From Sulfurimonas sp. (GTDB lineage Bacteria > Campylobacterota > Campylobacteria > Campylobacterales > Sulfurimonadaceae), in contig JALSLQ010000009.1 in the NCBI GenBank assembly GCA_026988235.1, positions 5,992-69,991 on the forward strand: a stretch of DNA of 64,000 nt, read 5' to 3'. The notes beneath the pieces were generated by a model. The model was not told the origin of the DNA. It worked only from the letters and a program-made list of their open reading frames with translations, and ran no database searches. The position numbers and the translations under genes are program-made. This document shows, one piece after another, positions 4,351 through 21,756 of this stretch (positions are counted from its first letter, which is position 1; the number at the start of each line of letters is the position of its first letter).

Positions 4351-5595
4351 ATGGGTAGAGATATGGAACAATTTTTAAAAGAAGCAAAATCTGCGAGTAG
4401 AGTTTTAAATACGCTTAGCGGACGAGATAAAAACAAGATTTTACATGTAATGGCAAATGCCTTGCGAGCAAATACTATGGATTTGATAGAAGCCAATGCT
4501 ATAGATATGATTGAAGGGGAAAAGAATAAACTCTCTTCGGCTTTAATGGACAGACTCTTTTTAGATGAAGAGAGGGTGGAGTCTATGGCAAAAGCTGTGG
4601 AAGAAATAGCCGCACTTAAGGAACCGGTTGGACGCATACTTGAAGGATGGATAACTGAGGACGGACTAAAAATAGAAAAAGTGAGTATTCCTATCGGTGT
4701 TATCGGCATTATTTATGAATCTCGTCCCAATGTTACCAGTGATACGGCAGCACTTTGTTTTAAAAGCTCAAATGTTTGTGTGCTTAAAGGAGGAAAAGAA
4801 GCAGAGCGTTCAAACAAAGCAATAGCTCAAGTTTTAAAAGCGGTTTTAGAAAGTCATGATTTACCAACATCATTGATATCTTTGATTCCTGATAGTTCAC
4901 GAGAGGGTGTTGCAAAGCTTATAAAAATGGATAAATATGTAGATTTAATTATTCCAAGAGGTGGAGCAGGACTTATAAAATATGTCAGTGAAAATGCAAC
5001 GGTGAGTGTCGTAAAACATGACAAAGGGCAATGCCATACTTACATTGATAAAGATGCAAAGATTGAGGATGCACTAAAAATTGCAATTAATGCAAAAGTA
5101 CAAAGACCGGGTGTATGCAATGCCATGGAAACATTGCTTGTAGATAAAGTTATAGCAAAAGAGACACTTCCTCTTCTTAAAGAGGCTTTTGATGCAGTCG
5201 ATACTAATCTCAAAGGTTGCGTGGCAACACAGGAAATAATTCCTGTTACAAGGGCTAGTGATGAAGATTATGACACAGAATATTTGGCAAATATCTTAAA
5301 TATAAAAGTTGTTGATGGCGTAGAAGGAGCGATAGAACATATTGTCCGTTTTGGTTCGGGACATTCAGAAGCTATTATTACACAAAATATTACAACTGCA
5401 GAAGAATTTTTAAATAATATTGACGCGGCAGCCGTGTATGTAAATGCTTCTACCCGTTTTACAGATGGAGGGGCTTTTGGTTTTGGTGCAGAAGTGGGTA
5501 TAAGTACCAATAAACTTCATGCTAGGGGTCCTATGGGAATTGAAGGATTAACAACCTATAAATATAAAGTTTATGGAAATGGGCAGATACGATAA
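4351..5595 (+). CDS. proA: Gamma-glutamyl phosphate reductase
   Basis: Aldehyde-dehydrogenase fold typical of ProA (IYESRPNVT, catalytic Cys in PGVCNAMETLLV), about 410 aa. An alternative start is the ATG at 4363. Confidence 0.9.
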   Translation: MGRDMEQFLKEAKSASRVLNTLSGRDKNKILHVMANALRANTMDLIEANAIDMIEGEKNKLSSALMDRLFLDEERVESMAKAVEEIAALKEPVGRILEGWITEDGLKIEKVSIPIGVIGIIYESRPNVTSDTAALCFKSSNVCVLKGGKEAERSNKAIAQVLKAVLESHDLPTSLISLIPDSSREGVAKLIKMDKYVDLIIPRGGAGLIKYVSENATVSVVKHDKGQCHTYIDKDAKIEDALKIAINAKVQRPGVCNAMETLLVDKVIAKETLPLLKEAFDAVDTNLKGCVATQEIIPVTRASDEDYDTEYLANILNIKVVDGVEGAIEHIVRFGSGHSEAIITQNITTAEEFLNNIDAAAVYVNASTRFTDGGAFGFGAEVGISTNKLHARGPMGIEGLTTYKYKVYGNGQIR

Positions 5596-6239
5596 TGTTA
5601 AGTATAAATGAACTAAAATGTATAATTTTTTTCGAACATTTAGATGAAAGAGAGTTGAAATTATTACTTTCAATTTCAAGAAAAAGAACTTTTTCTCAGG
5701 GTGAAATTCTTTTTTATGAAAAAGAAAAAGCGCAGCATTTAACGATGGTACTCGAAGGTGTGGTGAAAATTTATAAGATTGATCCAAAAAACAATGAAAT
5801 TGTATTGCATAGATTTCGACCGAAAAGTTTGGTTGCAGAGATGGCTGTATTTGAAGGAGTTCCTTATCCTGCTTCTGCTGCATTTGAGAGTGATGGAAGT
5901 GTTTTAGAAATAGATTTTGATAAATTTAGAGAGTACTTTTTTGCGAATGCAGATGTTGCCTGTGCCCTTTTTAAATCTTTGACACAAAAGATTAAGTATC
6001 TTGATAATGTAATAGCATTAAATGTCGTCTTGGACTCTACGGCGCGAGTTGCCAAGTATATATGTGAAAATGATGATGCATTAAAGATGAAAAACAATCA
6101 ACTTGCACAGTATTTACATATGACACCGGAGACACTTTCTCGCATACTCAAAAAATTTACGAAATTAGGCTTTGTAGAAAAAGAAGACAGTGCTTATAAA
6201 ATTATCAATGAAGAGGCGTTAACAATACTTTTTGAATGA
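5595..6239 (+). CDS. Crp/Fnr-family transcriptional regulator without an N-terminal Cys cluster (Dnr/NnrR/NssR-like)
   Basis: cNMP-binding beta-barrel followed by a C-terminal HTH with recognition helix PETLSRILKKF (the E--SR motif used by FNR-class proteins to read TTGAT). There is no FNR-type Cys cluster. The start overlaps the proA stop (TAATG). Confidence 0.85.
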   Translation: MLSINELKCIIFFEHLDERELKLLLSISRKRTFSQGEILFYEKEKAQHLTMVLEGVVKIYKIDPKNNEIVLHRFRPKSLVAEMAVFEGVPYPASAAFESDGSVLEIDFDKFREYFFANADVACALFKSLTQKIKYLDNVIALNVVLDSTARVAKYICENDDALKMKNNQLAQYLHMTPETLSRILKKFTKLGFVEKEDSAYKIINEEALTILFE

Positions 6240-6254
6240 TATTTGTTATCTTTA

Positions 6255-6268
6255 TTGATATAAATCAA
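6255..6268. promoter_or_regulatory. Perfect FNR/Dnr-type box TTGATataaATCAA
   Basis: Exact TTGAT-N4-ATCAA palindrome. TACAAT at 6291-6296 places the box centre about 41.5 bp upstream of the inferred start site. It lies 16 bp after the regulator gene and upstream of the DUF2249 operon. Confidence 0.6.
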
Positions 6269-6325
6269 CTCCTCTGTTATCTTTCTTGATTACAATCACA
6301 AAATATTATTGTAAAAGGATTGATA

Positions 6326-6673
6326 ATGTTACATATTCCGAGTGAAGCGCAAAAAATAGTTGTTGACGGTGCTACCGTTGATTTTTACAAACTAGCAAAA
6401 GAAGGACAGAGTACATACTACTTCGATACATCAAAAGAAGGTCCACCACATCCTATGGTAAATGCAATGTCAGGTTTAGGATTGATTAAAGGAACAAATG
6501 ATACTTTGGTTATGATAAATCATAAAGCACCGGGTGGGCTTTTTGCAAAACTTGGAGATGATGTAAAGTATGCTATTGAAGATTTAGATGGTGGTTTAGT
6601 AAAAGTTGTTTTTTCTTATGATAAAGATGCTATATCAGAATCTGATTTAACGCAAACAAGTTGTGGTGCTTGA
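6326..6673 (+). CDS. DUF2249-like small protein (TusA-like fold family found in NO/oxidative-stress clusters)
   Basis: Pattern FDTSKEGPPHPMVNAM...LVMINHKAPGGLFAKL resembles the DUF2249 signature (PPxP ... H..P..L). I prefer the ATG at 6326 (AAGGA lies 7 nt upstream) over the TTG at 6320 in the track. Confidence 0.6.
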   Translation: MLHIPSEAQKIVVDGATVDFYKLAKEGQSTYYFDTSKEGPPHPMVNAMSGLGLIKGTNDTLVMINHKAPGGLFAKLGDDVKYAIEDLDGGLVKVVFSYDKDAISESDLTQTSCGA

Positions 6674-6681
6674 GCTAAATA

Positions 6682-7920
6682 ATGGGTAAAATATCGCAAG
6701 ATTTTGCACCGCCGTTTAAATTAATAGCACCCTTTTTTATTCTAGGGAGTATTTTTTATCTTTTGTCATCATTGTACCTGTTCACTTTTACATCAGATGA
6801 TTTATCGTTTACAAATCCGCAAGTTATAAGTTTTACGCACTTATTTTTACTTGGTTTTGTAATGATGACTATATTTGGTGCAATGGCTCAACTAGTTCCT
6901 GTTGTTTTAGAAGTAGGACATTTTGGCGTAGAACTTTTTTATGCTATTTGGCCACTTCTGCTTATTGGAACTTTATTGATGGTATTTGGATTTTTATATT
7001 CAAGTGCCTTATTGCCTTATGGTGGGATTGTAGTTTTAATTTCAATGATGATATTTGTTGGTGAAATTTTTTTAACTATCTTTAAAGTAAAAAAATTAAC
7101 CCTAGTCATGAGCAGTGTTTTAATATCAAATACATTCTTATTTTTTGGAATAATATTTGGTCTTTTAATGGCACTTTCATATGCCGGTACAATATCAGTA
7201 GATATATCATCACTCTTAAAAGCACATATATATTCAGTATTAGGTGGTTATATTTCTATTACTATTATGGGGCTTTCTGTTGTTTTAATACCAATGTTTA
7301 CGCTGTCACATAGCTTTTCTATGAGACCTTTAGAGATTTCTATAAGTACCATGACTATAGCTGTTGTTTTAGCAATATTGGCATCACTTTTACATTTGGA
7401 AGTATTAAGTTATATTGCGGATATTTTAGCTCTTGGTGCAATGTTAGTATATGCGTATTTAATATATATTATTTATAAAATTAGACCTCGAAAAGAGAAT
7501 GATGTGTATGCCATATCTTTAATGTTTTCATACTCTTCTTTGGTGGCTTCTATATTGATGCTTGTTGTCTATTTTTTTATGGAAAAAGAGACTTATTTAC
7601 TTGCTTCTATGTGGCTTCTATTTTTTGGTTTTTTTGGTTTTTTAATTACTGGGCATATTTATAAAATAATTCCATTCCTTGTATGGTTTGAAAAATTTTC
7701 TCCTCTTGTTGGAAAACAGAAAATTCCAATGCTTGCAGATATGGTACCGTATAAAAGTTCTCAAGCACAGTTTATATTTTGTGCAGTCGGTGTTATTATT
7801 GTAACTATTGCAATAATTTCTCAAAGTAATATTCTTATAGGGGCAGGGGCATCATTTTTAGTGATGGGTGCTATTGCGTTTATAAGAAGTGTATTGTATA
7901 TGATAAATTTTAAAGGATAA
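6682..7920 (+). CDS. Polytopic (about 12 TM) membrane protein, possibly NnrS-like
   Basis: 412 aa and almost entirely TM helices. A His-containing helix motif occurs twice (THLFLLGFVMMTIFG and AHIYSVLGGYISITIMG), reminiscent of NnrS-type proteins. The NO-regulon context fits. The family call is tentative. Confidence 0.45.
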   Translation: MGKISQDFAPPFKLIAPFFILGSIFYLLSSLYLFTFTSDDLSFTNPQVISFTHLFLLGFVMMTIFGAMAQLVPVVLEVGHFGVELFYAIWPLLLIGTLLMVFGFLYSSALLPYGGIVVLISMMIFVGEIFLTIFKVKKLTLVMSSVLISNTFLFFGIIFGLLMALSYAGTISVDISSLLKAHIYSVLGGYISITIMGLSVVLIPMFTLSHSFSMRPLEISISTMTIAVVLAILASLLHLEVLSYIADILALGAMLVYAYLIYIIYKIRPRKENDVYAISLMFSYSSLVASILMLVVYFFMEKETYLLASMWLLFFGFFGFLITGHIYKIIPFLVWFEKFSPLVGKQKIPMLADMVPYKSSQAQFIFCAVGVIIVTIAIISQSNILIGAGASFLVMGAIAFIRSVLYMINFKG

Positions 7921-7923
7921 TAA

Positions 7924-8229
7924 ATGGCAATGTATACTAAAGATGAAATTTTTCAGGCTATATCTACAGTTATAGACCCTGAGGTCGGTTTTAACCTTGT
8001 AGAAATGGGGCTTATTTATGATGCCTCATGTGATAAAGAAGGCAATGTAAAAGTGACTATGACACTCTCCACAAAAGCGTGCCCACTGCATCAAATGATT
8101 TTACAATGGGTTAAAGAAGCCGTAGAAAAACTACCGAATGTTCAAAGTGTTGATGTTGAGGTGGTTTGGGAGCCGGAGTGGAATATAACCATGGCGGACA
8201 ATAATGTAAAAAAGGCATTAGGTGCCTAA
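7924..8229 (+). CDS. DUF59 / MIP18-family Fe-S assembly protein (SufT/PaaD-like)
   Basis: Typical DUF59 N-terminus (IFQAISTVIDPEVGFNLVEMGLIY) and a conserved Cys (STKACPL), about 100 aa. Confidence 0.8.
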   Translation: MAMYTKDEIFQAISTVIDPEVGFNLVEMGLIYDASCDKEGNVKVTMTLSTKACPLHQMILQWVKEAVEKLPNVQSVDVEVVWEPEWNITMADNNVKKALGA

Positions 8230-9102: not shown

Positions 9103-10119
9103 TTATACGACTGTTTTATATTTTTCTTCCCACTCAGTAAATTCGGGTGTGAAGTATTCAATGCGAACTTTTTTAAATTCTTTTGATGAATAGAGAGGCA
9201 TATGTGATTTGGACTCTATTTCTTCAGACATTTCTTGTATCATTGCATTTGTTTCCTCTGTTGTTTTTCCATGAACCATAGTAAAAAGGTTATAAGGCCA
9301 ATTCTCATATTTTGGACGCAGATAGCAGTGACTAACAGCAGAAAATTCCGCTGCTTTTTTACCTATTTCCTCACCTATTTCCTCACCTATTTCTTCATCT
9401 ACATCCCAAACAACCATGGCGTTTGCATTAAAACCTGCTTTTCTATGATTTAAAATGGATGCAAATCTTCTCATGACACCTGCTTCTTGCAACTCTTGTA
9501 AAATATTGAAAAAGGTTTCATAATTTATATTGAGATTTTTAATAATTTTTGCAAAAGGTTCACTGATGAAGTCAATATCATACTGTGCATTTTGAATGAT
9601 TTCATGATGCAGAGGCGTGAGTTTTATATCAGTATGAACAACTTTTATTAGCTTTTCTTTTTTTGCATCTTTACCAGTTGTATCAAGTTTGACATTTATT
9701 TTAAAAAGTTTTAATGTCGGCAGTACAATATAGTCATCTGCCTCTGTGAGTTTTGCAAGGAGTTCTATGGTTTTGTCTAAACCAAAAAGAGAGTCAGGAG
9801 CAACAGCCATAGTAAACCAGATGTTGAAATCATGGTTTCTTTCATAGTTATGAGATACACCGGGGTGTGAATTAATGATTTTTACAGCTGTGGCGATATT
9901 TTCTTTAGGAATTTTAAAAGCGACTAGAGATGACTTGTAGCCTAATCGTTTTGTATCAAAGATGGCAGAAGTTTGTCGTATGATATTTGCTTTTTTTTCT
10001 GCTTGCAATATTTCTAAAACTTCTTCTTCGCTCATACCTAATTCATTTGCAATCACCTCAAAAGGTTTTTGCACTAATGGAAACTTTTTTTGTATTCTTG
10101 AAAGTATCTCTTGTTTCAT
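9103..10119 (-). CDS. Two-domain Lrp/AsnC-like siroheme decarboxylase, NirD/NirL-type fusion (heme d1 biosynthesis, AhbA/B-like)
   Basis: Two tandem NirD/L/G/H-like modules. The N-terminus MKQEILSRIQKKFPLVQKPFEVIANELGMSEEEVLEIL is characteristic of the family. Heme d1 gene context. Confidence 0.75.
   Translation of the reverse strand: MKQEILSRIQKKFPLVQKPFEVIANELGMSEEEVLEILQAEKKANIIRQTSAIFDTKRLGYKSSLVAFKIPKENIATAVKIINSHPGVSHNYERNHDFNIWFTMAVAPDSLFGLDKTIELLAKLTEADDYIVLPTLKLFKINVKLDTTGKDAKKEKLIKVVHTDIKLTPLHHEIIQNAQYDIDFISEPFAKIIKNLNINYETFFNILQELQEAGVMRRFASILNHRKAGFNANAMVVWDVDEEIGEEIGEEIGKKAAEFSAVSHCYLRPKYENWPYNLFTMVHGKTTEETNAMIQEMSEEIESKSHMPLYSSKEFKKVRIEYFTPEFTEWEEKYKTVV
9361..9396 (-). repeat. 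In-frame tandem repeat, 3 x 12 bp (ACCTATTTCCTC x2, ACCTATTTCTTC), encoding EEIG-EEIG-EEIG
   Basis: Read directly from the sequence. It lies inside the nirDL-like CDS (protein ...DEEIGEEIGEEIGKK...). Confidence 0.9.
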
Positions 10120-10195: not shown

Positions 10196-10256
10196 TAACT
10201 TTATGGGCATATATGCTATGATTACATTACAAAAACTTAAGTAAGGGTATTTGGAT

Positions 10257-10823
10257 ATGGCTTATTTTCCGGCATTTTTAAAACTAGATGACAAAAAAAT
10301 TCTCATAGTAGGTGGTGGAAATGTTGCTTATGAAAAGTTGGAACACCTGCTTGATTTTACAAAAGATATACATGTAATAGCAACAGAATACTCTGTCGCA
10401 ATGAAAAGACGAATAGAAAAGGAAAATCTTGAGTATAAGCAGCGTGCTTATGAAGAGGGTGATATAAAAGACTTCACAATGGTTATAGTCGCAGTGGACA
10501 CTATAGCATTGCAAGCAGAAATATTTCAAGAATCAAAAAAATATAACTGTCTTTGTAACGCTGTCGATTCTGTCGATTATTGCGATTTTATTTTTCCGTC
10601 TTATGTGAAAAAAGATGATTTGACTATTGCAATATCAACTTCTGGCACTTCGCCTGCAATGGCAAAACATTTAAGACGCTACTTACAAAAGATGATTCCA
10701 GATGGAATTTCAGAATTTTTACAAGAGATGAAGGCATTGCGTAAAAGCTTGCCTAAAGGAAAAGAGAGAATGAGAATGCTTGATGAAAAAGCAAAAAACT
10801 ATATTGAAAATTGGAGTAAGTAA
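10257..10823 (+). CDS. Precorrin-2 dehydrogenase / sirohydrochlorin ferrochelatase (SirC/Met8/CysG N-terminal-type)
   Basis: MAYFPAFLKLDDKKILIVGGGNVAYEKL is the typical NAD-binding start of the siroheme synthase N-terminal domain. I prefer the ATG at 10257 over the TTG at 10251. Confidence 0.8.
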   Translation: MAYFPAFLKLDDKKILIVGGGNVAYEKLEHLLDFTKDIHVIATEYSVAMKRRIEKENLEYKQRAYEEGDIKDFTMVIVAVDTIALQAEIFQESKKYNCLCNAVDSVDYCDFIFPSYVKKDDLTIAISTSGTSPAMAKHLRRYLQKMIPDGISEFLQEMKALRKSLPKGKERMRMLDEKAKNYIENWSK

Positions 10824-11200
10824 TGAAGGCTAAACAAGGATTATTTTTAGGAGTGTTGTTCGCATTTTTTGTACTAGGGTTTATAGCTATACAAAAGGCT
10901 ACACCGGACGCAAAACCACATAGAATGTATAAAGAAATTAAAATATATAGTCCATATAAATTTGAAAAAACTATTGGAGGTCTGGCAATAATTGATACCA
11001 GAACAGGAACAAAAGAAAAACCTGATGCGGCAGATGCTCTGTACCGTATGGATGAACTTGACCAAAAATGGGGAAAAAATCATCTTAAAATAGTTGAGAA
11101 TGAGCTCGTCGTTTTAGGTGATTATAATCAGACAGTAAGCAAAATATATATTCAAACAAAAAAAGAGAAAAGTTGGCTAAAAAAGTTTTTTGGGATTTAG
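10823..11200 (+). CDS. Hypothetical exported or anchored protein (N-terminal TM/signal)
   Basis: Track ORF. The start overlaps the sirC-like stop (TAATG). No recognisable family. Confidence 0.5.
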   Translation: MKAKQGLFLGVLFAFFVLGFIAIQKATPDAKPHRMYKEIKIYSPYKFEKTIGGLAIIDTRTGTKEKPDAADALYRMDELDQKWGKNHLKIVENELVVLGDYNQTVSKIYIQTKKEKSWLKKFFGI

Positions 11201-11221
11201 TAATATAAAGGGGAGTACATT

Positions 11222-12424
11222 ATGCTACGATTAAGTCTGTTGGCAATAGTTATCATTGTTGTCTGGATAGAGATACTTCCTTATTTAATACCTAAAAAAC
11301 CAAAAAATTTTTATAGTGATGATGATTTACGCGAGATTGCACTCAGTAGAGGCATGCATCCTATTCCCAAAGATTATGCTAAGTTTTTACAGCTTCTTGA
11401 TTCTAAAGAGAATCCTATTACAAAAGAAAAAGTTGCTTTGGGCAAACAACTATTTTTTGATACACTGCTTTCAAAAGACAATACAATTAGCTGTGCATCT
11501 TGTCATATGTTGGGTAAAAATCCGCATAATAAAAACCAATTTTTAGATGATATAAGTCATCCACAGGAAAAAACAAGCTGTATGATCTGTCATATAAAAG
11601 ATGAAAGTGGTACAGATAGGCTCTCAACAGCCATAGGAGTAGAAGGTGCAATTGCTCCAAATCATTTAAATACACCTACAATTTTAAATTCTGCTTTGGC
11701 AAAATACAGAATGTGGGATGGCTCAGCTAAAACTTCTATGGATGTTATTGCTCCAATGATACATGATAAATACAAGATGAATTTATCATCCAAAGAGCTT
11801 CAAGAGAAATTAAAAAAGAATATTTATTATGTGCAAGAGTTTAAAAAAGTTTTTGCTGACGGCATTACATTTAAAAATGTAGAAAAAGCAATAGATACTT
11901 ATCAAAAAACACTGTTAACGAGAAGTGCTTATGATAGATTTTTAGAAGGCGATAACTCTGCAATGAGTGCAGAAGCAAAAAGAGGTTTTAAAGACTTTAT
12001 ACAACTTGGTTGTAAAGGTTGTCATACCGGCATAACAGTTGGAGGACAAACAATACAAAAATTTCCTGTACGAAATTATAATCATATCATTGATGTAACG
12101 GGAATCTTTAGTCGAGAATATATTGGTAGAGATGTGGCTGCATTTAATTTTAATTTTAAACAATACCGCAGATACCCGTTTGAAAATAAAGGTGGATATT
12201 TAGGGAAAGATAATAAACAACTTTTTCGTGTGCCTATTTTACGAAATGTAACAAAAACATCGCCATATTTTCATAATGGTGCTGTATTTGATCTGCGTGA
12301 GGCTATTCACATTATGGGAAAATATCAGTTAAGTATGGAATTAACAGAGATACAAATAGATGAAATTGTCGCCTTTTTAAAATCACTTGAAGGCAATGTA
12401 GTCGAGTATAAGGAGTTAAAGTGA
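11222..12424 (+). CDS. Cytochrome c peroxidase / MauG-family protein with N-terminal TM anchor and three CXXCH motifs
   Basis: CASCH, CMICH and CKGCH. CCP-like blocks are present (TPTILNSA, MWDG, FRVPILRNV, SPYFHNGA). Confidence 0.85.
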   Translation: MLRLSLLAIVIIVVWIEILPYLIPKKPKNFYSDDDLREIALSRGMHPIPKDYAKFLQLLDSKENPITKEKVALGKQLFFDTLLSKDNTISCASCHMLGKNPHNKNQFLDDISHPQEKTSCMICHIKDESGTDRLSTAIGVEGAIAPNHLNTPTILNSALAKYRMWDGSAKTSMDVIAPMIHDKYKMNLSSKELQEKLKKNIYYVQEFKKVFADGITFKNVEKAIDTYQKTLLTRSAYDRFLEGDNSAMSAEAKRGFKDFIQLGCKGCHTGITVGGQTIQKFPVRNYNHIIDVTGIFSREYIGRDVAAFNFNFKQYRRYPFENKGGYLGKDNKQLFRVPILRNVTKTSPYFHNGAVFDLREAIHIMGKYQLSMELTEIQIDEIVAFLKSLEGNVVEYKELK

Positions 12425-14226
12425 AAATATTTTTTATTAATCTCGATATATTTTTTATGTTTATAAGCGGCATTTTATTAATGAATTACTTTGCTATACC
12501 ATGGTCATATTTCAGGACTATAGAATTTTTACATATATTTGGATCTATAGCCATAATGATTTTGTTTATATTGCCTTTTTTATATACACATATGTATGAA
12601 AGTATGCTAAGAATGAAACATCAAAGTGCAAGTGGACTTTTATTTGGATTGATTTTACTATTGATTCTTATAAGTGGAACATACTTATTTTTAGTTGGTA
12701 ACAGAGGCGGTGATATTTTTGGTGTTCTTTCATATTATATCCACCTTTATGGCTCTTTTGCCCTTGTTTTACTTTTAGGTATTCATTTGAAAAAACATTT
12801 TTTTTCAAGGTTTGCTGTTGTGACGATATCTTTATTTATTTTATTTTTGCCAAGTAATTCTTATGCGAAACAAGAAAAACTTGTAAATATTGCTTTTACC
12901 GATGGTGCAAAATATCATCATAGTGTTGATTGGACAAACTCTGTTACATGTAAAGCGTGTCATCCGAAAATATTTAAACAATGGGCAGATTCAAATCATA
13001 GACATCTTGCAGATTCAAATCCTTACTATATGGTGTTGGAAAATTTAGCGGGAATGGACAAGGGTAAAGAGTTTCGACAATGGTGTATGGGTTGCCATAA
13101 CCCGAGTGCCGTAAGTATGCATCAAGAAAGAACAACACATTTTATGCAAGATAATATTATGCCAGAACCACTTTTTACTAAAGGTTCACAAAATCTCATC
13201 AATGAGTATAAGAAAAATCCAAATAGACTTGAGCAGGGTGTTTCTTGCATTGCATGTCATCGTATAGTAAAAGCAAAACCGATTGGAAATAGTTCTTATA
13301 CCTTAAACCTTAGCAAAAGAAAAAAATATTTTTATGAAGATTCACATACAGATATGAAAGTGTGGATAAGTCAAAAGCTAATTAATGCAAATCCACAGGT
13401 ACATAAAAATGAGTATATGCAGCCTTTATATAAGAAGAGCGAATATTGTGCTTCTTGTCATAATGAATTTTTACCGCATTCGGGTAAAAAAGTAGTTTCA
13501 ACTTATGAACAGTGGAAAAAATCTCCTTACAATGACCCGAAGCATCCTAATGAGCATAAAGATTGTATTGATTGTCATATGACTAACTTGAGAAATGGTA
13601 AATTTTCTCCGCTTCAAGGGCATTCTACACTTGGCGGTAAAAATAAAAAAGATATAAAAGTACACTATTTTGCAGGAGGGAACTATTTTCTTTCTGGCTT
13701 AAAAAATACAGAGAATGAATCACAGTCTTTACAACTTTTGAAAACATCTGCAAAATTAGATGTAACGATTGATAAAAATATATTATATGTTGGTGTTAAA
13801 AATGTCGGAGCAGGGCATAAACTTCCTACCGGAGCGGCAGATTTTCGTGAATTATGGCTTGATATAACAGTCAAAGATAGCAATGAAAAAATTGTTTTTA
13901 GTAGTGGAAAATTAAATAAAGGAGGAGACATACAAAAGAACTCTGTTATTTTCAACAAGGTATTTGGTGATAAAGATGGGAAACCCGTAGGATTGTTTTT
14001 TTGGCGATATGTAAAATTACTCAAAGATACAAGAATACCGGCAGGTAAAAGAGTTGTAGAAAAAATTCCATTACAAAAAGATGTGCAGTATCCTTTACAT
14101 GTAAACATTAAGCTTAATTTTAGAATTTATCCGCAATGGGTAACGAATATTGTAAAAGTTGCATATCCACAATTACCGAATCCTCCTGTCATAACAATAG
14201 AACATTTGGAAAAATCTTTTGAGTAA
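12421..14226 (+). CDS. Fusion protein: N-terminal 4-TM His-rich domain (cytochrome b-like?) plus periplasmic pentaheme cytochrome c
   Basis: Five CXXCH motifs (CKACH, CMGCH, CIACH, CASCH, CIDCH). The N-terminal 130 aa form about 4 TM helices with His in or next to them (FLHIFGS, YTHMY, YYIHLYG, LGIHLKKH). The GTG start overlaps the peroxidase stop. Confidence 0.75.
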   Translation: MKIFFINLDIFFMFISGILLMNYFAIPWSYFRTIEFLHIFGSIAIMILFILPFLYTHMYESMLRMKHQSASGLLFGLILLLILISGTYLFLVGNRGGDIFGVLSYYIHLYGSFALVLLLGIHLKKHFFSRFAVVTISLFILFLPSNSYAKQEKLVNIAFTDGAKYHHSVDWTNSVTCKACHPKIFKQWADSNHRHLADSNPYYMVLENLAGMDKGKEFRQWCMGCHNPSAVSMHQERTTHFMQDNIMPEPLFTKGSQNLINEYKKNPNRLEQGVSCIACHRIVKAKPIGNSSYTLNLSKRKKYFYEDSHTDMKVWISQKLINANPQVHKNEYMQPLYKKSEYCASCHNEFLPHSGKKVVSTYEQWKKSPYNDPKHPNEHKDCIDCHMTNLRNGKFSPLQGHSTLGGKNKKDIKVHYFAGGNYFLSGLKNTENESQSLQLLKTSAKLDVTIDKNILYVGVKNVGAGHKLPTGAADFRELWLDITVKDSNEKIVFSSGKLNKGGDIQKNSVIFNKVFGDKDGKPVGLFFWRYVKLLKDTRIPAGKRVVEKIPLQKDVQYPLHVNIKLNFRIYPQWVTNIVKVAYPQLPNPPVITIEHLEKSFE

Positions 14227-14614
14227 AATAGTGTTGTTAGTGCTTCTTATATTTTGTGAGGCACAGGGGTTTATGATTGAAAGTAATTATGAAGTCGCAC
14301 AACAAAAAGCTTTGAAATCAAATAAAATACTTCTTGTGTTTTTGACAAAAAAAGAGTGCACTTACTGCAATAAAGAGCTTAGAAAAATTTTGAACAGTAA
14401 AAATATAACTTCACTTATTGAAAAAAAAGCAATTTTTCTTTTAGTGTATAAAGCGCAATACGAAAGTTTTCCTAGAGAATTGCTCTATGCGACACATTAC
14501 CCAACACTATTTTTTCTTGATAAGTATGAACTTTTTTCTTGCAGAGCATTACGAGAAAATATAAATATAAAAGATATAATAACTTGCTTAACGCCAAAAA
14601 AAATTAGCCAATAG
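14219..14614 (+). CDS. Thioredoxin-fold protein with CxxC (CTYC), exported
   Basis: Signal-like N-terminus. KILLVFLTKKECTYCNKEL resembles thioredoxin_7/DUF255-type proteins. The start is uncertain (TTG at 14219 or GTG at 14231). It overlaps the upstream stop. Confidence 0.55.
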   Translation: MSKIVLLVLLIFCEAQGFMIESNYEVAQQKALKSNKILLVFLTKKECTYCNKELRKILNSKNITSLIEKKAIFLLVYKAQYESFPRELLYATHYPTLFFLDKYELFSCRALRENINIKDIITCLTPKKISQ

Positions 14615-15500
14615 CATCAAAAGCATCTTCAATTGTTTTATACTTTTGTGCTATAAAAAGATAAACTGCTGCATTGAGTTTTGCTAATTTTAAATAGGCA
14701 TCAGAGGGGTTATTGAGCTGTTCGAGTGAATCTGCAAGTGTTATGGTATCCCATGATTTTTTATAGTTTATGCCATAATATTGTGGGTCTATAATTATCT
14801 CTTTTATATCATCTCCTTCTTCAGTAATCCATAATCGACCTTTACTAAAGAGTTCAGGAGTTCCCTCATTCCCTTGAATGAGAGCGAACTTTTTATACCT
14901 ATCTGCAAAAATTTCTACATATTTTTTTACATAGGGTTTATGAAATACTCCTGTAATTGCATAATTGCTGTTTGCAACATTTGGAAGTTTTTCTATGGTG
15001 TTAAAGCCGCTTCTAAGCCCTAGTTTATTTCGTATATCAGTAAGCATGTGCAATTTGTTGAGATAGTTTTTTCTGTTAAAATATTTAATATTTTGACTCA
15101 AAATTATATTGTCACATATATTTTTGATTGTGATACCATCTTTTGCAGGCTGTTTTTCATCACCCATTATAACTAGATTAAGATCTGTTTTTTGCAGTAT
15201 TTTTGCAACAAGTGGAAAAATATAAGGATTTTTTGCTTTGCCGTCAAACGGATAACCAAGTTCTATGGAATTTGGTATATTTTCTTTTTGTGTATATGTA
15301 TCACACGCAGTAAGTGCCCCACGGAACTCCTCTGTTGTCTCAGGTTTGAGTCTCCACCCAAGTAAAAATGCAGCAATCTGTTCACTCGGAACACTTTGGT
15401 CTAAAACCTGCTGCATCATATCTTTACTCTCCTCAAAACTTAAATCTCTATTACCTTTGGGACCGGTTCCAACTGCATGTATATATTTAAAAAAATCCAT
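14604..15500 (-). CDS. TrpD-like (glycosyl transferase family 3 / anthranilate phosphoribosyltransferase-like) protein
   Basis: The N-terminal helical domain pattern (GNRDLSFEESKDMMQQVL...QIAAFLLGWRLKPET) is typical of TrpD/TrpD2. It is about 40 aa shorter than canonical TrpD and has no trp gene context. Confidence 0.6.
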   Translation of the reverse strand: MDFFKYIHAVGTGPKGNRDLSFEESKDMMQQVLDQSVPSEQIAAFLLGWRLKPETTEEFRGALTACDTYTQKENIPNSIELGYPFDGKAKNPYIFPLVAKILQKTDLNLVIMGDEKQPAKDGITIKNICDNIILSQNIKYFNRKNYLNKLHMLTDIRNKLGLRSGFNTIEKLPNVANSNYAITGVFHKPYVKKYVEIFADRYKKFALIQGNEGTPELFSKGRLWITEEGDDIKEIIIDPQYYGINYKKSWDTITLADSLEQLNNPSDAYLKLAKLNAAVYLFIAQKYKTIEDAFDAIG

Positions 15501-15513
15501 TGAATACCTTTTC

Positions 15514-15852
15514 TTATTTATCTAACTCGTTTTCAATTGCCTCTTGCAAATTACTGTCTTTTGGTGAAATGTCAAAATACTCTTTTGTAAAAGTAATAGT
15601 TACAGCTTTCATGGCATTATTTTCTTCTTTTTCAGCAATAAGTTCATTTTCTTTAAATTCAGTTATCCTCCAACCATTTTTTTCACCGGCTTGACGAATC
15701 AGCTTATGAAACTTCTTTAAAGGTATCTCGTGTTTTAAGTGCGTGAAAGAAACAGTTTTTACATCTCCTGTTGTCATAGATGTTGTTGAGCAGGCATTAA
15801 AAAGCATACTGCTTAAAACTATTGTAATGGTAGAAATTATAATTTTTCTCAT
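15514..15852 (-). CDS. Lipoprotein, unknown function
   Basis: Lipobox SSMLFNAC after a signal peptide. Track ORF. Confidence 0.6.
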   Translation of the reverse strand: MRKIIISTITIVLSSMLFNACSTTSMTTGDVKTVSFTHLKHEIPLKKFHKLIRQAGEKNGWRITEFKENELIAEKEENNAMKAVTITFTKEYFDISPKDSNLQEAIENELDK

Positions 15853-16619: not shown

Positions 16620-17354
16620 TTATTTGTTAAACCAATTTAGTTGATCTCTGAGTTCAACGACTTTGCCGACTATAATGAGAGCGGGGGTGGGTACTCCTTT
16701 TGCTTTTTGCACAATATCGCTAAGTGTTCCGACAACGACACTTTGGTCTTTTGTAGTTCCGCGTGAAATCACAGCACAAGGATAATCTTTTGATTTGCCT
16801 ACTTCTATAAGTTTTGATGCAATTTTAGGAAGATTGTGTAAGCCCATTAAAAATATGATTGTATCATCTGTTTTAAAATTTTCCCATGCAATTTGAGACT
16901 CTTTTTTATTTGGAGATTCATGCCCCGTTACGACTCTGAAACTTACAGCTACCCCACGATGTGTTACTGGAATACCGGCATATGCAGGTACACTTATAGC
17001 AGAGGTTATTCCTGGAATTATCTCAAATTTTATATCTCTTTGTGCAAGGTATGTACCTTCTTCCCCTCCACGCCCAAAAACGAAAGGATCGCCCCCTTTT
17101 AATCGTACTACTACATTATATTTAAGAGCATTTTGATAAATGACTTCATTTATTTCATCCTGTGGTAGTGTATGCTTCCCATCTTCTTTTCCTACATAAA
17201 CAAACTCGCAACCGTCTTTTGTCATCTCTAAAATCTCAGGATTTGCTAAGCGATCATAAATGATAACATCAGCTTCACTGATAACTCTGTGAGCTTTCAT
17301 TGTTAAGAGTTCAATGTCTCCGGGACCGGCACCAGTTAAATACACTCTGCTCAT
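16620..17354 (-). CDS. cobA: Uroporphyrinogen-III C-methyltransferase (SUMT; NirE/CobA role)
   Basis: VYLTGAGPGDIELLT start, GGDPFVFGRGGEE and IPGITS motifs. Confidence 0.9.
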   Translation of the reverse strand: MSRVYLTGAGPGDIELLTMKAHRVISEADVIIYDRLANPEILEMTKDGCEFVYVGKEDGKHTLPQDEINEVIYQNALKYNVVVRLKGGDPFVFGRGGEEGTYLAQRDIKFEIIPGITSAISVPAYAGIPVTHRGVAVSFRVVTGHESPNKKESQIAWENFKTDDTIIFLMGLHNLPKIASKLIEVGKSKDYPCAVISRGTTKDQSVVVGTLSDIVQKAKGVPTPALIIVGKVVELRDQLNWFNK

Positions 17355-18454
17355 TATTTTTTGTCCTCATAAAGAAATATTCCAGATGGTTTTTTGATAG
17401 TAAATATTTCTCTTTTAATCCACCATCCTTTTGTATTAATCACAACGACTTTGTTCGCATCATTAACTGAAACAAAAAGTTCAGGTCTGATGTTGGACCA
17501 TCTTACATGTAACACTTTTCCATTAAATTGGAATCTTTTAATGATTTTTAATGTTTTTGTATCAATGATTTGAATAACCGGAAATTTTTTACCGCTGAAT
17601 GTCACTGCCAAATATTTTTTATCTGGAGATAAGGCTGTAAAAACAGGCATGCCTTCTGTTTTGATGGATTTAATAAATTTAAATTTTGGCGTAAATACAA
17701 AAACTTTATTGTCGCCAACAGCAGGAATGAAAACTTTAGAATGACTTACCGACCAAAAACCAAAATGAGGTACTTTTAAAACAGGCTCTCTTTCTCCTAA
17801 TTTTAAAGGTATTTTTTTAAATTTCATGGTGTCTAAGTTAACTTCTCCTAACCAAGGACTTTTAAAAAAACCATTTATATACTTATTTCCATCGATTAGG
17901 GCATCAAAAGGCATTATTCCAACATTCTTAAACTCTTTATAGAGTATAAAATGAGGTTTTTCTTTATTGACATTTACATTTTTATAAACAGCAATAGTGT
18001 CATTATCCATTTCTGAAAAAACAAGATAATTTTTATATATTTTAATACCGACATTGCGTGAACCAGTCTTTAGTTTTTCTATAGGTTTTAAATTGCGTGA
18101 GAGAATATCGACACTCTTGTCATCATAGTTGGCAACAGCAACATAGTTTTTGTTGATAACAAAACCAATGGCACTTTTACTCGTTTTATACTCAGCTATT
18201 TTTTTTTCGGTCACAGGGTTAAATCTCATAATATAACCATCGCGACTTATAAGGTACCCATCTTTACCGTAAAACTTCATAACTCCATGATTCATATTAT
18301 GCATATGCTCCATATGATTTCTAGGCAGTCCATCTTCTATGACTGCGACAGAGCTACTTTCACGCTCAACAACAAATACTTTTTCATGTGCACTTGCATT
18401 TACATGTAACGACAAGGCTATAATTATAACTGCCAAAAAGTTTTTTATTTTCAT
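17354..18454 (-). CDS. nirF: NirF-like cd1-type beta-propeller protein without heme c (heme d1 biosynthesis)
   Basis: Signal peptide, beta-propeller-like repeats, and no CXXCH. It sits between nirJ and the SUMT gene, with 1-nt overlaps at both ends. Confidence 0.75.
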   Translation of the reverse strand: MKIKNFLAVIIIALSLHVNASAHEKVFVVERESSSVAVIEDGLPRNHMEHMHNMNHGVMKFYGKDGYLISRDGYIMRFNPVTEKKIAEYKTSKSAIGFVINKNYVAVANYDDKSVDILSRNLKPIEKLKTGSRNVGIKIYKNYLVFSEMDNDTIAVYKNVNVNKEKPHFILYKEFKNVGIMPFDALIDGNKYINGFFKSPWLGEVNLDTMKFKKIPLKLGEREPVLKVPHFGFWSVSHSKVFIPAVGDNKVFVFTPKFKFIKSIKTEGMPVFTALSPDKKYLAVTFSGKKFPVIQIIDTKTLKIIKRFQFNGKVLHVRWSNIRPELFVSVNDANKVVVINTKGWWIKREIFTIKKPSGIFLYEDKK

Positions 18455-19575
18455 TATACTGTCTCTCTTTCTTCTTTAGTTAAGTAACATGATGGATCTT
18501 CACTCCATAGGTCACCTGTTATTGCATAAGCTCGTGCTCGACTGCCACCATTACATATGTCTATTTGTTTACATGTACTGCAAATACCGCTTATTTGTGT
18601 TCGCGGATGTATGCGAAGTTTTTCTAAAAGTTCTCCGTTTTGCCATATGTCACCAAAATCTTGATGGATGATATTACCGACAATTAGAGGGAAAAAGGGG
18701 TCAGGTCGCACATCTCCTTCACTGTTTATATTGAGTAGTTTGCGTCCTGCAGAATTACCTCCCCATTTGACGAGTCTCTCTCTCATTTTTTCTTTAAATT
18801 GAGGATACTTTTGTGTAAATTTATTTAAAAATGCAATAGCATCCATTTCCATATTTCCAGTGACGATTTCGATATCTCGCCCTGTTTCATAATACTCAAA
18901 TGCTTTGTTAAGTATAAAATCAACAGCTTTTTTTCTTTGTTCCTTGCTTAAATCCATTTTCAAATTGTCTAATCCTCGTCCGGAATAAACTAAATGAGAA
19001 ATATATATCTTTGGAATATTATGTTTTTCTACCAAATCAAAAATATATTCTAATGAGCCAATAGTATCTTTTGTCATGGTAAAACGAATACCAACTTTTG
19101 CACCTGTTTCGTTCGCTAAAAGAACAGATTTGAGTGTTTCCTTAAATGCGCCTTTAAGCCCACGAAAATAATCATGTGTTTTTTCATTTCCATCTATACT
19201 TACCCCAACATAATTAAAAGTATCAGTAATTCTTTTTATATTAGCTTTTGTAAAATAAAGACCGTTACTAGAAAGGTAAGTGATAATGCCATTTTCTTTA
19301 CAAAAATCGGCTATTTCAAACAAGTCTTTTCTTGTAAGTGGCTCTCCTCCTGAGAAAATGATAAATTTCACACCGTTTTCTTTCATTTGTAAAATAGTTT
19401 TTTTAATCTGCTCAGTCGTTAAGGTATCTACTTCATCTAAAGTTGATTTTGAATAGCAGTGCAGACAAGAAAGATTACAACGATTTGTAAAATTCCAAAT
19501 AGCGATGCTACCATCTAAAATTCTCTCTTTTTTATCTTCAACAACTGAAGCAATGAGATTTGATAATCGAAACAT
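18454..19575 (-). CDS. nirJ: Radical SAM heme d1 biosynthesis protein NirJ
   Basis: CNLSCLHCY radical-SAM cluster motif and a C-terminal SPASM-like Cys cluster (CSTCKQIDICNGG). Confidence 0.85.
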   Translation of the reverse strand: MFRLSNLIASVVEDKKERILDGSIAIWNFTNRCNLSCLHCYSKSTLDEVDTLTTEQIKKTILQMKENGVKFIIFSGGEPLTRKDLFEIADFCKENGIITYLSSNGLYFTKANIKRITDTFNYVGVSIDGNEKTHDYFRGLKGAFKETLKSVLLANETGAKVGIRFTMTKDTIGSLEYIFDLVEKHNIPKIYISHLVYSGRGLDNLKMDLSKEQRKKAVDFILNKAFEYYETGRDIEIVTGNMEMDAIAFLNKFTQKYPQFKEKMRERLVKWGGNSAGRKLLNINSEGDVRPDPFFPLIVGNIIHQDFGDIWQNGELLEKLRIHPRTQISGICSTCKQIDICNGGSRARAYAITGDLWSEDPSCYLTKEERETV

Positions 19576-20061: not shown

Positions 20062-21699
20062 CTATGCACCTGGAATATTTTGTCTATGCTCGATAGAGTA
20101 AGTAAATGTTGGGGTTGTTAAACCTTTAATATATTTAACAAATTTACCAGTTTTTGCTTCATAAATACCGATACGACCAGCATTCCACTCCGAAATCATA
20201 GTCCAATGACCATGGTTTGCAGGTTCAGCATGTAAAATTCTAGGAATTATAACTTTACCTTTTTTATTTTTTACAGTTGGAACTTTCCAGCTATAAAGTA
20301 TTTTGTGTGTTACCGGATCTGTAACAGTACCTCTTTTTGTACCAACAGTAATAATTCTGTCTGTTTCAAGTGTTTGTTTGTTAATGAGGTACATTTTGTT
20401 CCATGCAGATGGTCCACCGATTACATTATCTGACCAAAGGAATGGTGTATGTTCACTTGTTCCGACAAAAAGACCACCACCGGCAGTTCTTACGCGTGCA
20501 ACAACATCCCAGTTACTATCCCAAATAATACATTCACCGACATTCATACTGTTTGTAGCATAAAGTTGTCCATATCTGTCATTATACCAAGATGAACCTT
20601 GACCTGGGTGAGGCTTAGTACCAGGACCAGTATAAACTTTAGCAACTAAAGATTTTGTTTTAAAGTCAACAACACCCATAACATCACTTCCTTGAGAAGC
20701 TTGCATTAAGTAGCGTCCAATCTCTTTACCTTCATTTTCAAAACCATCATGTAAGATTTTACCAATGTTTGGAATATCACCAACAATCGGGAATCCTGGT
20801 TTAGAGTAATCAACAATATATACATGACCTGCATCTTTAAGAGCAAATGCGATGTATGGACCATATGGAGTATCATAAACACCGGCTACACGAGATGAAC
20901 CGATATTTCCATCCATATCAATTACACTTGATGTCGGATAAACTTTCAATGGTTTTAATGTCATTGCATCCATTAAAATAGCACCACCTGGTACATAATT
21001 TCCTGCCATTAAGTATTTTCCATCTGGAGAAACTGCAAGACCACGAGATGATGTACCTACTTGTACCTGTGCAATTTTTTGTTGACCCGGTGTATTTAAA
21101 TCAAACATTGTCACTAAACCTGAACGAGAGATTGAGTATGCATAGCGGGGTAGACGCTTGTTTGTTACTGTTACATGTACTGCAAATCCTGCAGGGTGGC
21201 GAGAAAGGATTTTACCAGTTGTGCCATCCATAAAGTCAACACGAGAAGCATCACGCTCTGTAATAAAACAAATGTTTGCAACTTTTTTCACATCCACAGG
21301 GTGTGGATATTTTTTTAGAAATTTCATTCTATCATTCAGTGGTTTCCAACCTGCAGTTACTGCTTTAAGGGTTAAAATTTTAATTTTATGACCTTTAAAA
21401 TGTTGTAAATAATCAACCATTTTATCAGCATCTGCTTTATTAAATGTATTGTCCCAAGCAGGCATTGCAGTACCAGGAACACCATTTAGAATTTTTTCTG
21501 CCAAAGTGTAAGAATTCATTTTGGCAATTTTTGCAGGGCGTAAATCCGCTCCAACACCACCTTCATGATTTGGACCATGGCATCCTTGACACTCTTTTTT
21601 AAACACTTTAGCAACATTCATATGTGAAGTGCCGGCAAATAGACTTGAACCTACAACCGCTAATGCCGCGACTGATATAACTAATTTATTGAATCTCAT
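20062..21699 (-). CDS. nirS: Cytochrome cd1 nitrite reductase
   Basis: Signal peptide MRFNKLVISVAALAVVG from the ATG at 21699 (GGAG lies 8 nt upstream), heme c motif CQGCH, and a long d1 beta-propeller. The first 14 codons of the track ORF are rejected. Confidence 0.95.
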   Translation of the reverse strand: MRFNKLVISVAALAVVGSSLFAGTSHMNVAKVFKKECQGCHGPNHEGGVGADLRPAKIAKMNSYTLAEKILNGVPGTAMPAWDNTFNKADADKMVDYLQHFKGHKIKILTLKAVTAGWKPLNDRMKFLKKYPHPVDVKKVANICFITERDASRVDFMDGTTGKILSRHPAGFAVHVTVTNKRLPRYAYSISRSGLVTMFDLNTPGQQKIAQVQVGTSSRGLAVSPDGKYLMAGNYVPGGAILMDAMTLKPLKVYPTSSVIDMDGNIGSSRVAGVYDTPYGPYIAFALKDAGHVYIVDYSKPGFPIVGDIPNIGKILHDGFENEGKEIGRYLMQASQGSDVMGVVDFKTKSLVAKVYTGPGTKPHPGQGSSWYNDRYGQLYATNSMNVGECIIWDSNWDVVARVRTAGGGLFVGTSEHTPFLWSDNVIGGPSAWNKMYLINKQTLETDRIITVGTKRGTVTDPVTHKILYSWKVPTVKNKKGKVIIPRILHAEPANHGHWTMISEWNAGRIGIYEAKTGKFVKYIKGLTTPTFTYSIEHRQNIPGA

Positions 21700-21756
21700 T
21701 TTATTTCTCCTTCTAAAATTGAAGATTAGACATGACCCCATGGGGATCAGTCTGAC

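Follow-up and report, generated by a model that had tools for sequence, protein, structure and literature searches.

The window analyzed here, a 64-kb stretch of contig JALSLQ010000009.1 from Sulfurimonas sp., is AT-rich (~32% G+C) and encodes proteins 75–80% identical to those of deep-sea Sulfurimonas species. The subject of this analysis is a block of five genes on one strand (10257–14614; Table 1), sirC, p125, ccp400, mhc601 and trx131, flanked by nirDLGH on one side and by a convergent TrpD-like gene on the other, which an earlier note had taken for a single operon encoding a periplasmic redox system. Direct reading of the sequence bears out the five same-strand open reading frames (ORFs) and their close junctions. 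sirC and p125 overlap in TAATG (10821–10825), through which translation of p125 would be coupled to that of sirC, and a gap of 21 nucleotides (nt) containing the ribosome-binding site AAGGGGAG separates p125 from ccp400. ccp400 and mhc601 overlap in GTGA (12421–12424; AAGGAG just before), each of these two genes being preceded by a good Shine-Dalgarno sequence, and mhc601 and trx131 overlap by 8 nt (14219–14226). The 3′ end of trx131 overlaps tail-to-tail by 11 nt with the convergent gene (14604–15500, minus strand), leaving no room for a terminator, and within the five-gene block no promoter-like or terminator-like site rose above chance. The heme and thiol motifs that had been claimed (three CxxCH in ccp400, five in mhc601, CxxC in trx131) were all found by motif check; Pfam and NCBIfam likewise agree with the assignments to SirC, cytochrome c peroxidase (CCP), multiheme and thioredoxin-like families, an FNR-type box is present upstream of the block, and predicted helices and topology anchor the 400-amino-acid (aa) and 601-aa proteins in the membrane.

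Window proteins were mapped onto 80 related loci from a scan with one genome per species, 33 of them well flanked (6 kb or more on either side). In 63/63 loci with room on the contig (61 by ORF count and two missed through start-codon choice) ccp400 immediately precedes mhc601, the two sharing the same 4-nt overlap in 54/61, and trx131 is found downstream of mhc601 in 29/61. sirC, in contrast, always adjoins nirDLGH, with p125 following it in 15/16 sirC-containing loci, and the FNR box in the nirDLGH/sirC intergenic region keeps its position in 13/14 loci, whether ccp400-mhc601 lie downstream or not, which assigns both box and sirC to a heme d1 unit. Conservation of the whole five-gene block is confined to the nearest Sulfurimonas relatives (L001, L002 and L059). 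Elsewhere, an opposite-strand TrpD-like gene separates p125 from ccp400 (L011, L013, L025, L027, L040, L057 and L065), and SDR-AraC-SDR genes also intervene between sirC-p125 and ccp400 in many of these and in other loci. No nir, nor or sirC gene is found near the ccp400-mhc601 pair in 22/33 well-flanked loci, including those of Arcobacter and Aliarcobacter, where its neighbors are argJ, trkA, polyphosphate kinase, DHH phosphoesterase or DUF3817/DUF420 genes; the remaining 11/33 have such a gene nearby. As a unit conserved across Campylobacterota the five-gene block thus failed, FNR box and sirC tracking nirDLGH instead, and what stands of the proposed operon is a three-gene core of ccp400, mhc601 and trx131. 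The block is read as the juxtaposition of a heme d1 unit (sirC-p125) and a conserved Campylobacterota module (ccp400-mhc601-trx131) that, judging from the loci compared, landed right behind sirC-p125 in the present genome, a clade-specific arrangement in which the module is probably co-transcribed from the FNR-box promoter. The SDR-AraC-SDR genes are also seen directly upstream of ccp400 (L027, 6032–8645; L044, 8022–8834; ~30 other loci), with the stop codon of the SDR gene, which encodes a cytoplasmic dehydrogenase, abutting the ccp400 start (gap 0–15 nt) in at least 12 loci.

sirC matches TIGR01470 (127.3 bits, cut-off 62.3), NAD_binding_7 (PF13241; 1.7e-28) and Sirohm_synth_M (PF14824), and its predicted product is a precorrin-2 dehydrogenase/sirohydrochlorin ferrochelatase-like enzyme of the CysG N-terminal type, within the CysG-N/SirC/Met8p family. 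Heme d1 is made from siroheme, which SirC-type enzymes make. The siroheme-branch enzyme, which had been counted among the genes of the proposed operon, is explained instead by the supply of siroheme as precursor of the heme d1 of NirS, with nirDLGH, nirE, nirF, nirJ and nirS as its neighbors, and sirC in such islands is better annotated as belonging to heme d1 synthesis. As in described heme d1 biosynthesis clusters (nirE, nirDLGH, nirJ, nirF plus siroheme synthesis), sirC would provide the dehydrogenase/ferrochelatase step and is grouped with nirDLGH behind a conserved FNR/Dnr box; p125, however, has no counterpart there. p125 consists of an N-terminal transmembrane (TM) helix followed by a conserved, predicted periplasmic domain without a Pfam or NCBIfam match, and its 106 homologs are either Sulfurimonas or epsilonproteobacterial hypothetical proteins (all named ones) or unnamed metagenome proteins. 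By Pfam/NCBIfam annotation the denitrification island occupies 5.6–24.5 kb of the window. Three FNR-type sites were identified in the window (five strand matches versus 1.1 expected; equaled in 0/100 shuffles), all upstream of denitrification-related genes. The link in expression to denitrification that the earlier note had drawn is consistent with the box upstream of the module here, but with 22/33 well-flanked loci unlinked it would be a feature of this clade.

Table 1 Features of the five-gene block and the surrounding denitrification island in the 64-kb window.
Feature	Position	Strand	Basis or remark
sirC	10257–10823 (alternative TTG start at 10251)	+	ORF list, Pfam, NCBIfam
p125 (125 aa)	10823–11200	+	ORF list
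ccp400 (400 aa), membrane-anchored three-heme bacterial CCP-family member	11222–12424	+	Pfam CCP_MauG, structural relatives
ccp400 CxxCH 1, CASCH, residues 91–95	11492–11506	+	canonical P-heme sequence context; invariant 62/62
ccp400 CxxCH 2, CMICH, residues 120–124	11579–11593	+	extra heme site; invariant 62/62
ccp400 Lys185, at the position of catalytic Glu118 of NgBCCP	11774–11776	+	profile alignment
ccp400 CxxCH 3, CKGCH, residues 264–268, E heme	12011–12025	+	H268 invariant
ccp400 M365, E-heme Met ligand	12314–12316	+	invariant
mhc601 (601 aa)	12421–14226	+	ORF list, Pfam, NCBIfam, Foldseek
mhc601 N-terminal 4-TM domain with H38, H57, H108, H122 and GNRGGD loop	12421–12795	+	
mhc601 fifth hydrophobic segment, residues 130–150, ending S-Y-A	12808–12870	+	
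mhc601 periplasmic pentaheme domain and C-terminal beta-sandwich	12889–14226	+	Foldseek, NCBIfam
mhc601 five CxxCH, residues 177, 222, 276, 343, 382	12949, 13084, 13246, 13447, 13564	+	motif check
trx131, exported thioredoxin-like protein	14219–14614	+	Thioredoxin_7
trx131 CTYC, residues 47–50	14357–14368	+	
Crp/Fnr regulator	5595–6239		
FNR-type box TTGATATAAATCAA, perfect palindrome	6255–6268		ahead of three-gene set
Fused nirDLGH siroheme decarboxylase	9103–10119	-	
FNR/Dnr-type box TTGATATTTGTCAA	10182–10195		divergent nirDLGH/sirC intergenic region
nirE	16620–17354		
nirF	17354–18454		
nirJ	18454–19575		
Small cytochrome c, then nirS	nirS 20062–21741		
norB and norC	after nirS in the island	-	order norC-norB
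Third FNR-type box TTGATTTAAATCAA	24483–24496		upstream of 108-aa ORF and norC-norB (-)

The ccp400 product matches Pfam CCP_MauG (1.3e-42), and its closest solved relatives are a bacterial cytochrome c peroxidase (bCCP) of N. gonorrhoeae (6qkn; 1.8e-50, improving to 5.5e-64 when the family profile is used) and YhjA of E. coli, while matches to MauG/MbnH structures are much weaker (1e-14 to 1e-27; MauG 1e-14). Classical di-heme bCCPs (N. gonorrhoeae 6fu3/6qkn, P. aeruginosa 1eb7) give the best matches in sequence and fold, and the equivalents of their His204/Met280, Trp98 and Asn83/Thr261/Pro263 are invariant across the 62 ccp400 orthologs as H268 and M365, W165 and the Ca2+ ligands N150, T346 and P348. 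By alignment ccp400 has the scaffold of the bCCP superfamily, with a His/Met-ligated E heme, an inter-heme Trp and a Ca2+ site. Unlike classical bCCPs, it adds a heme, a TM anchor (a helix at residues 2–22 in the predicted model, with no cleavage motif) and a loop enlarged by ~25 residues with a conserved PFENKGG motif, and does not keep the equivalents of Glu118, Phe97, Pro112 and His75. The additional CxxCH lies in an insertion of 25–30 residues right after the P-heme CxxCH, absent from classical bCCPs (the alignment breaks at 98–129).

Membrane-anchored three-heme quinol peroxidases are an established class (PMC10301912). Like its three characterized, non-classical members YhjA (E. coli), QPO (A. 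actinomycetemcomitans) and PerC (Z. mobilis), ccp400 combines an N-terminal TM anchor and three c hemes with a bCCP core that includes the His/Met E heme, Trp and Ca2+ site (PMC10301912), and a P heme without a distal His is counted here as a further likeness. YhjA (9qdt) also ranks with the top structural matches of ccp400. yhjA is FNR-regulated (PMC10301912), and ccp400 lies downstream of an FNR-type box in the present genome. However, the third heme of YhjA, QPO and PerC is housed in a separate N-terminal globular domain (PMC10301912), whereas the extra CxxCH of ccp400 follows the P-heme CxxCH by 25 residues, and YhjA aligns only from residue 129 onward. Two further differences are the replacement of the catalytic Glu in ccp400 and its constant pairing with a dedicated b/c-type membrane cytochrome gene, YhjA being thought to take electrons from quinol unaided.

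That cytochrome, mhc601, begins with a four-helix TM (4-TM) domain (first 125 residues in the predicted model) in which 30 mhc601 orthologs without exception keep H38, H57, H108, H122 and a GNRGGD loop. In a wider set of 32 representatives (20–46% identical) the four His and G93 are still invariant, and N94 and G97 nearly so. A search of 1.84 billion proteins gave 46 representatives, which makes this a rare domain. The invariant His lie on TM2 and TM4. By Lys/Arg counts (positive-inside rule) the N-terminus and loops 2 and 4 are cytoplasmic and the c-heme domain periplasmic, a topology in which H38/H108 lie toward the periplasmic side of the membrane and H57/H122 toward the cytoplasmic side. 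This is the pattern of a transmembrane bundle holding two b hemes, and the domain is probably a di-heme b domain. The description of mhc601 as a 4-TM plus pentaheme protein is correct in both parts, but omits an additional, fifth hydrophobic segment, which is signal-like and keeps a signal-peptidase-like S-Y-A/S end in most orthologs. It could be a TM linker or else act as an internal signal peptide, and mhc601 may be cut here to release the pentaheme part as a soluble cytochrome, apart from a membrane subunit of b type; the model has low confidence at residues 126–154. CbcL consists of a di-heme b domain fused to a multiheme c domain, and mhc601 resembles inner-membrane quinol:cytochrome oxidoreductases of this Geobacter type in its fusion of membrane b-type and periplasmic multiheme c domains and in a presumed link between the menaquinol pool and periplasmic redox partners. 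It differs in that its membrane domain has no homology to HydC/FdnI-type cytochromes b detectable in Pfam and PDB searches, its c domain is of another fold, and its partner would be a fixed enzyme rather than a carrier pool.

The five CxxCH of the mhc601 c domain are invariant among orthologs, as are all eight of ccp400 and mhc601 together. The domain matches Pfam Cytochrome_C554 and C7, and a Foldseek search with the whole mhc601 model returned T. tepidum c552 (5ZE8; E 1.7e-12, TM-score 0.63 on the target) as the sole significant match. NCBIfam ExtKL is also matched (7e-14), but at 51 bits against an equivalog cut-off of 250, which makes mhc601 a relative rather than an ortholog of ExtKL. With five CxxCH in a predicted c552-like fold carrying a beta-sandwich, the domain is placed in the pentaheme cytochrome (PHC) family, which was recently outlined without an assigned function (PMC11976967). 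Five CxxCH, fold, beta-sandwich and a GHxLPTG motif are common to mhc601 and the PHC family (T. tepidum c552, 5ZE8; Geobacter ExtKL; GSU2801; cable-bacteria PHCs; PMC11976967). Those, however, are soluble or lipoprotein cytochromes, while the mhc601 domain is fused to a His-rich 4-TM domain and paired with a CCP-like enzyme.

The third product of the module, trx131, matches Thioredoxin_7 (PF13899) at 31 bits (cut-off 27) and, with its fold match, CxxC and hydrophobic N-terminus, is classed as thioredoxin-like; no solved relative was significant. The CxxC is lost in 4 of 27 orthologs (L010–L013), which nevertheless keep the SYPIEMLYT..YP.LFF core, making a purely redox role uncertain. Its probable role is to assist maturation or thiol-redox reactions.

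Strict adjacency and translational coupling suggest that ccp400 and mhc601 work together, as does the existence, in the same bacteria, of a paralog (L070–L080) that joins equivalent domains in one protein of 1122 aa, composed of the same kind of 4-TM domain, a beta-propeller, a mono-heme CCP-like piece and a pentaheme domain. The membrane and pentaheme domains thus appear to form an electron-delivery module serving different periplasmic catalytic partners. In the model proposed here, the 4-TM domain of mhc601 would bind two b hemes through the His pairs H38/H108 and H57/H122 and exchange electrons with menaquinol; electrons would then run along the five periplasmic c hemes of mhc601 to the three-heme ccp400, whose P heme, with its remodeled distal pocket, would reduce a periplasmic oxidant. 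Homology, together with the analogy to quinol peroxidases of the YhjA type, makes hydrogen peroxide the most likely oxidant. The route from quinol through the membrane domain and five c hemes to the CCP-like enzyme, already suggested in the earlier note, remains the best model on sequence grounds, although a canonical peroxidase mechanism is doubtful at its end. A menaquinol-linked periplasmic reductase with peroxide as leading candidate substrate, encoded in a composite locus of two units, is given a probability of roughly 45%.

The loci of the paralogous system (e.g. L075, 3924–11335) encode a 672-aa protein without a Pfam match, a PMT_2-like membrane protein and the 1122-aa fusion. An unfused version is present on metagenome contigs from other lineages, other phyla among them (L081–L084), where adjacent genes encode a 4-TM protein of 164–191 aa and, after it, a beta-propeller protein.

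Several results weigh against a menaquinol-linked peroxidase. The ccp400 and mhc601 models are heme-free and of medium quality (pLDDT 68 and 74), with low confidence in the ccp400 heme insertion (111–137) and enlarged loop (277–356), making the P-heme CxxCH only a candidate assignment. When the 4-TM domain by itself and ten distant members of its family were scanned against Pfam, the matches, to DUF4405 and cytochrome b561, were all sub-threshold (E 0.006–0.5), a sequence profile search of the PDB with this domain found spurious TM matches only, and none of the Foldseek matches of mhc601 extends to it. A two-heme transmembrane bundle is equally suited to electron flow from the periplasm to the quinone pool. 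The distal-pocket residues of bCCPs (Glu118, Gln108, Phe97 and Pro112) are not those of ccp400: the Glu118 column holds Lys in 46, Gln in 10, Thr in 4 and Arg in 2 of the 62 orthologs and never Glu or Asp; the position of Gln108 is Val in the window protein (Gln in 45/62); Phe97 is replaced by Thr/Met and Pro112 by Ser/Met; and the distal His75 is lost. Single-residue variants of the catalytic Glu and Gln of bCCP are inactive (PMC10094543). With this Glu replaced in all 62 orthologs a canonical peroxidase mechanism is doubtful, and the ccp400 subfamily is probably annotated too confidently as ‘cytochrome c peroxidase’. A two-residue insertion brings a His to position 145 or 148 in 59/62 sequences, and it may be speculated that a Tyr/His184-Lys185 pair stands in place of the Glu/Gln pair.

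These features (Lys185, Tyr/His184 and the family-specific His145/148 in place of Glu/Gln) count in favor of a rival reading, in which the same electron chain ends in a remodeled CCP site that would assist denitrification by reducing or detoxifying nitric oxide (NO), nitrite or hydroxylamine. In this case a peroxidase scaffold re-tooled by the change from Glu to Lys, an added heme beside the P heme and a new His would be the catalytic subunit of a new menaquinol-dependent, non-peroxide terminal reductase fed by an unclassified di-heme b domain, which would give denitrifying Campylobacterota a new enzyme of respiration or detoxification. The pair lies within nir/nor islands in 11/33 well-flanked loci, where it is retained through rearrangements, and in the present genome it follows an FNR-type box. 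There is also a weak NCBIfam match between the C-terminal half of ccp400 and hydrazine synthase gamma (2.3e-10), a CCP-fold subunit thought to act on NO, but far below the family cut-off. Two thirds of the well-flanked loci, on the other hand, have the pair unlinked to nir/nor and amid housekeeping genes, and FNR-like boxes upstream of ccp400 are inconsistent in other genomes (17/66 loci when one mismatch is tolerated, the DNA being AT-rich). Reduction of nitrogen oxides or hydroxylamine, in either form, is considered unlikely; the other three explanations rank lower than both it and peroxide reduction.

The reverse direction of flow, in which a periplasmic reductant is oxidized at the c hemes and electrons pass through the two b hemes to menaquinone at the cytoplasmic side, in a redox loop of the formate dehydrogenase type, is less probable again. 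A His pair close to each face of the membrane is a typical arrangement for moving electrons across it, and in the widespread paralogous system this membrane domain is coupled to a protein with a beta-propeller. However, a CCP scaffold with a His/Met E heme feeding the P heme is built for the reduction of an oxidant, there is no known candidate substrate, and T. tepidum c552, the structural relative of the pentaheme domain, is described as a low-potential cytochrome in a title cited in PMC11976967.

A peroxidase homolog strictly paired with mhc601 could also be a maturation enzyme of the MauG/MbnH type that modifies a residue of mhc601 or trx131 with peroxide or O2, rather than a terminal reductase. 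Enzymes of this type are encoded beside their protein substrates, and the best NCBIfam match of ccp400 by name is the MbnH family (2.1e-44). Scores are nevertheless well below the cut-offs (TIGR04039, 152 bits versus 363; TIGR03791, 129 versus 444), and classical bCCPs match far better (1e-50 to 1e-64 versus 1e-14 to 1e-27). The electron-transfer heme of MauG uses a Tyr ligand, whereas that of ccp400 has an invariant Met, as in peroxidases, and ccp400 lacks the Glu on which MauG too depends. ccp400 was therefore not assigned to the MauG/MbnH family, and a maturation role is improbable. Least probable is a part in a periplasmic step of heme d1 maturation, e.g. in place of NirN: the module sits between nirDLGH/sirC and nirE-F-J here, and no nirN-like gene (a second cytochrome c plus d1-propeller besides nirS) was found within the window, but ccp400 and mhc601 have no NirN homology and 22/33 well-flanked loci have the pair at a distance from all nir genes, among them those of Arcobacter and Aliarcobacter.

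Literature searches found no paper describing the ccp400-mhc601 pair or a system built on it, in line with the view that no operon of such composition had been described. All domains except the membrane domain belong to known superfamilies, and quinol-linked peroxidases and b/c-fusion quinol dehydrogenases are known kinds; the combination of domains, the position of the third heme and the missing catalytic Glu are new. Relatives of Sulfurimonas and Arcobacter dominate sulfidic redox interfaces, and their inventory of periplasmic electron transfer is understood only in part. A strictly conserved pair with ten predicted heme sites, uniting an unclassified His-rich membrane domain, a pentaheme domain and a peroxidase homolog without the residue held essential for peroxidase chemistry, would add a new branch to the quinol-linked respiratory network of these bacteria. 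The PHC family (ExtKL, T. tepidum c552) would gain its first fixed enzyme partner, making its function experimentally approachable.

Two other gene sets in the island recur in related loci. The palindromic box TTGATATAAATCAA is followed (6255–8229) by genes for a 117-aa ORF, a 412-aa polytopic membrane protein without a Pfam or NCBIfam match and an FeS_assembly_P protein, a trio that accompanies nir islands or ccp400-mhc601-trx131 in L001, L024, L026, L028 and L059 and, by size and regulation, might be NnrS-like. The convergent gene downstream of trx131 is a TrpD2/YbiB-like member of glycosyltransferase family 3 and is accompanied by a small lipoprotein-like ORF (112 aa; 15514–15852, minus strand); both are linked to nir islands or to the ccp400-mhc601 pair in ~20 loci.

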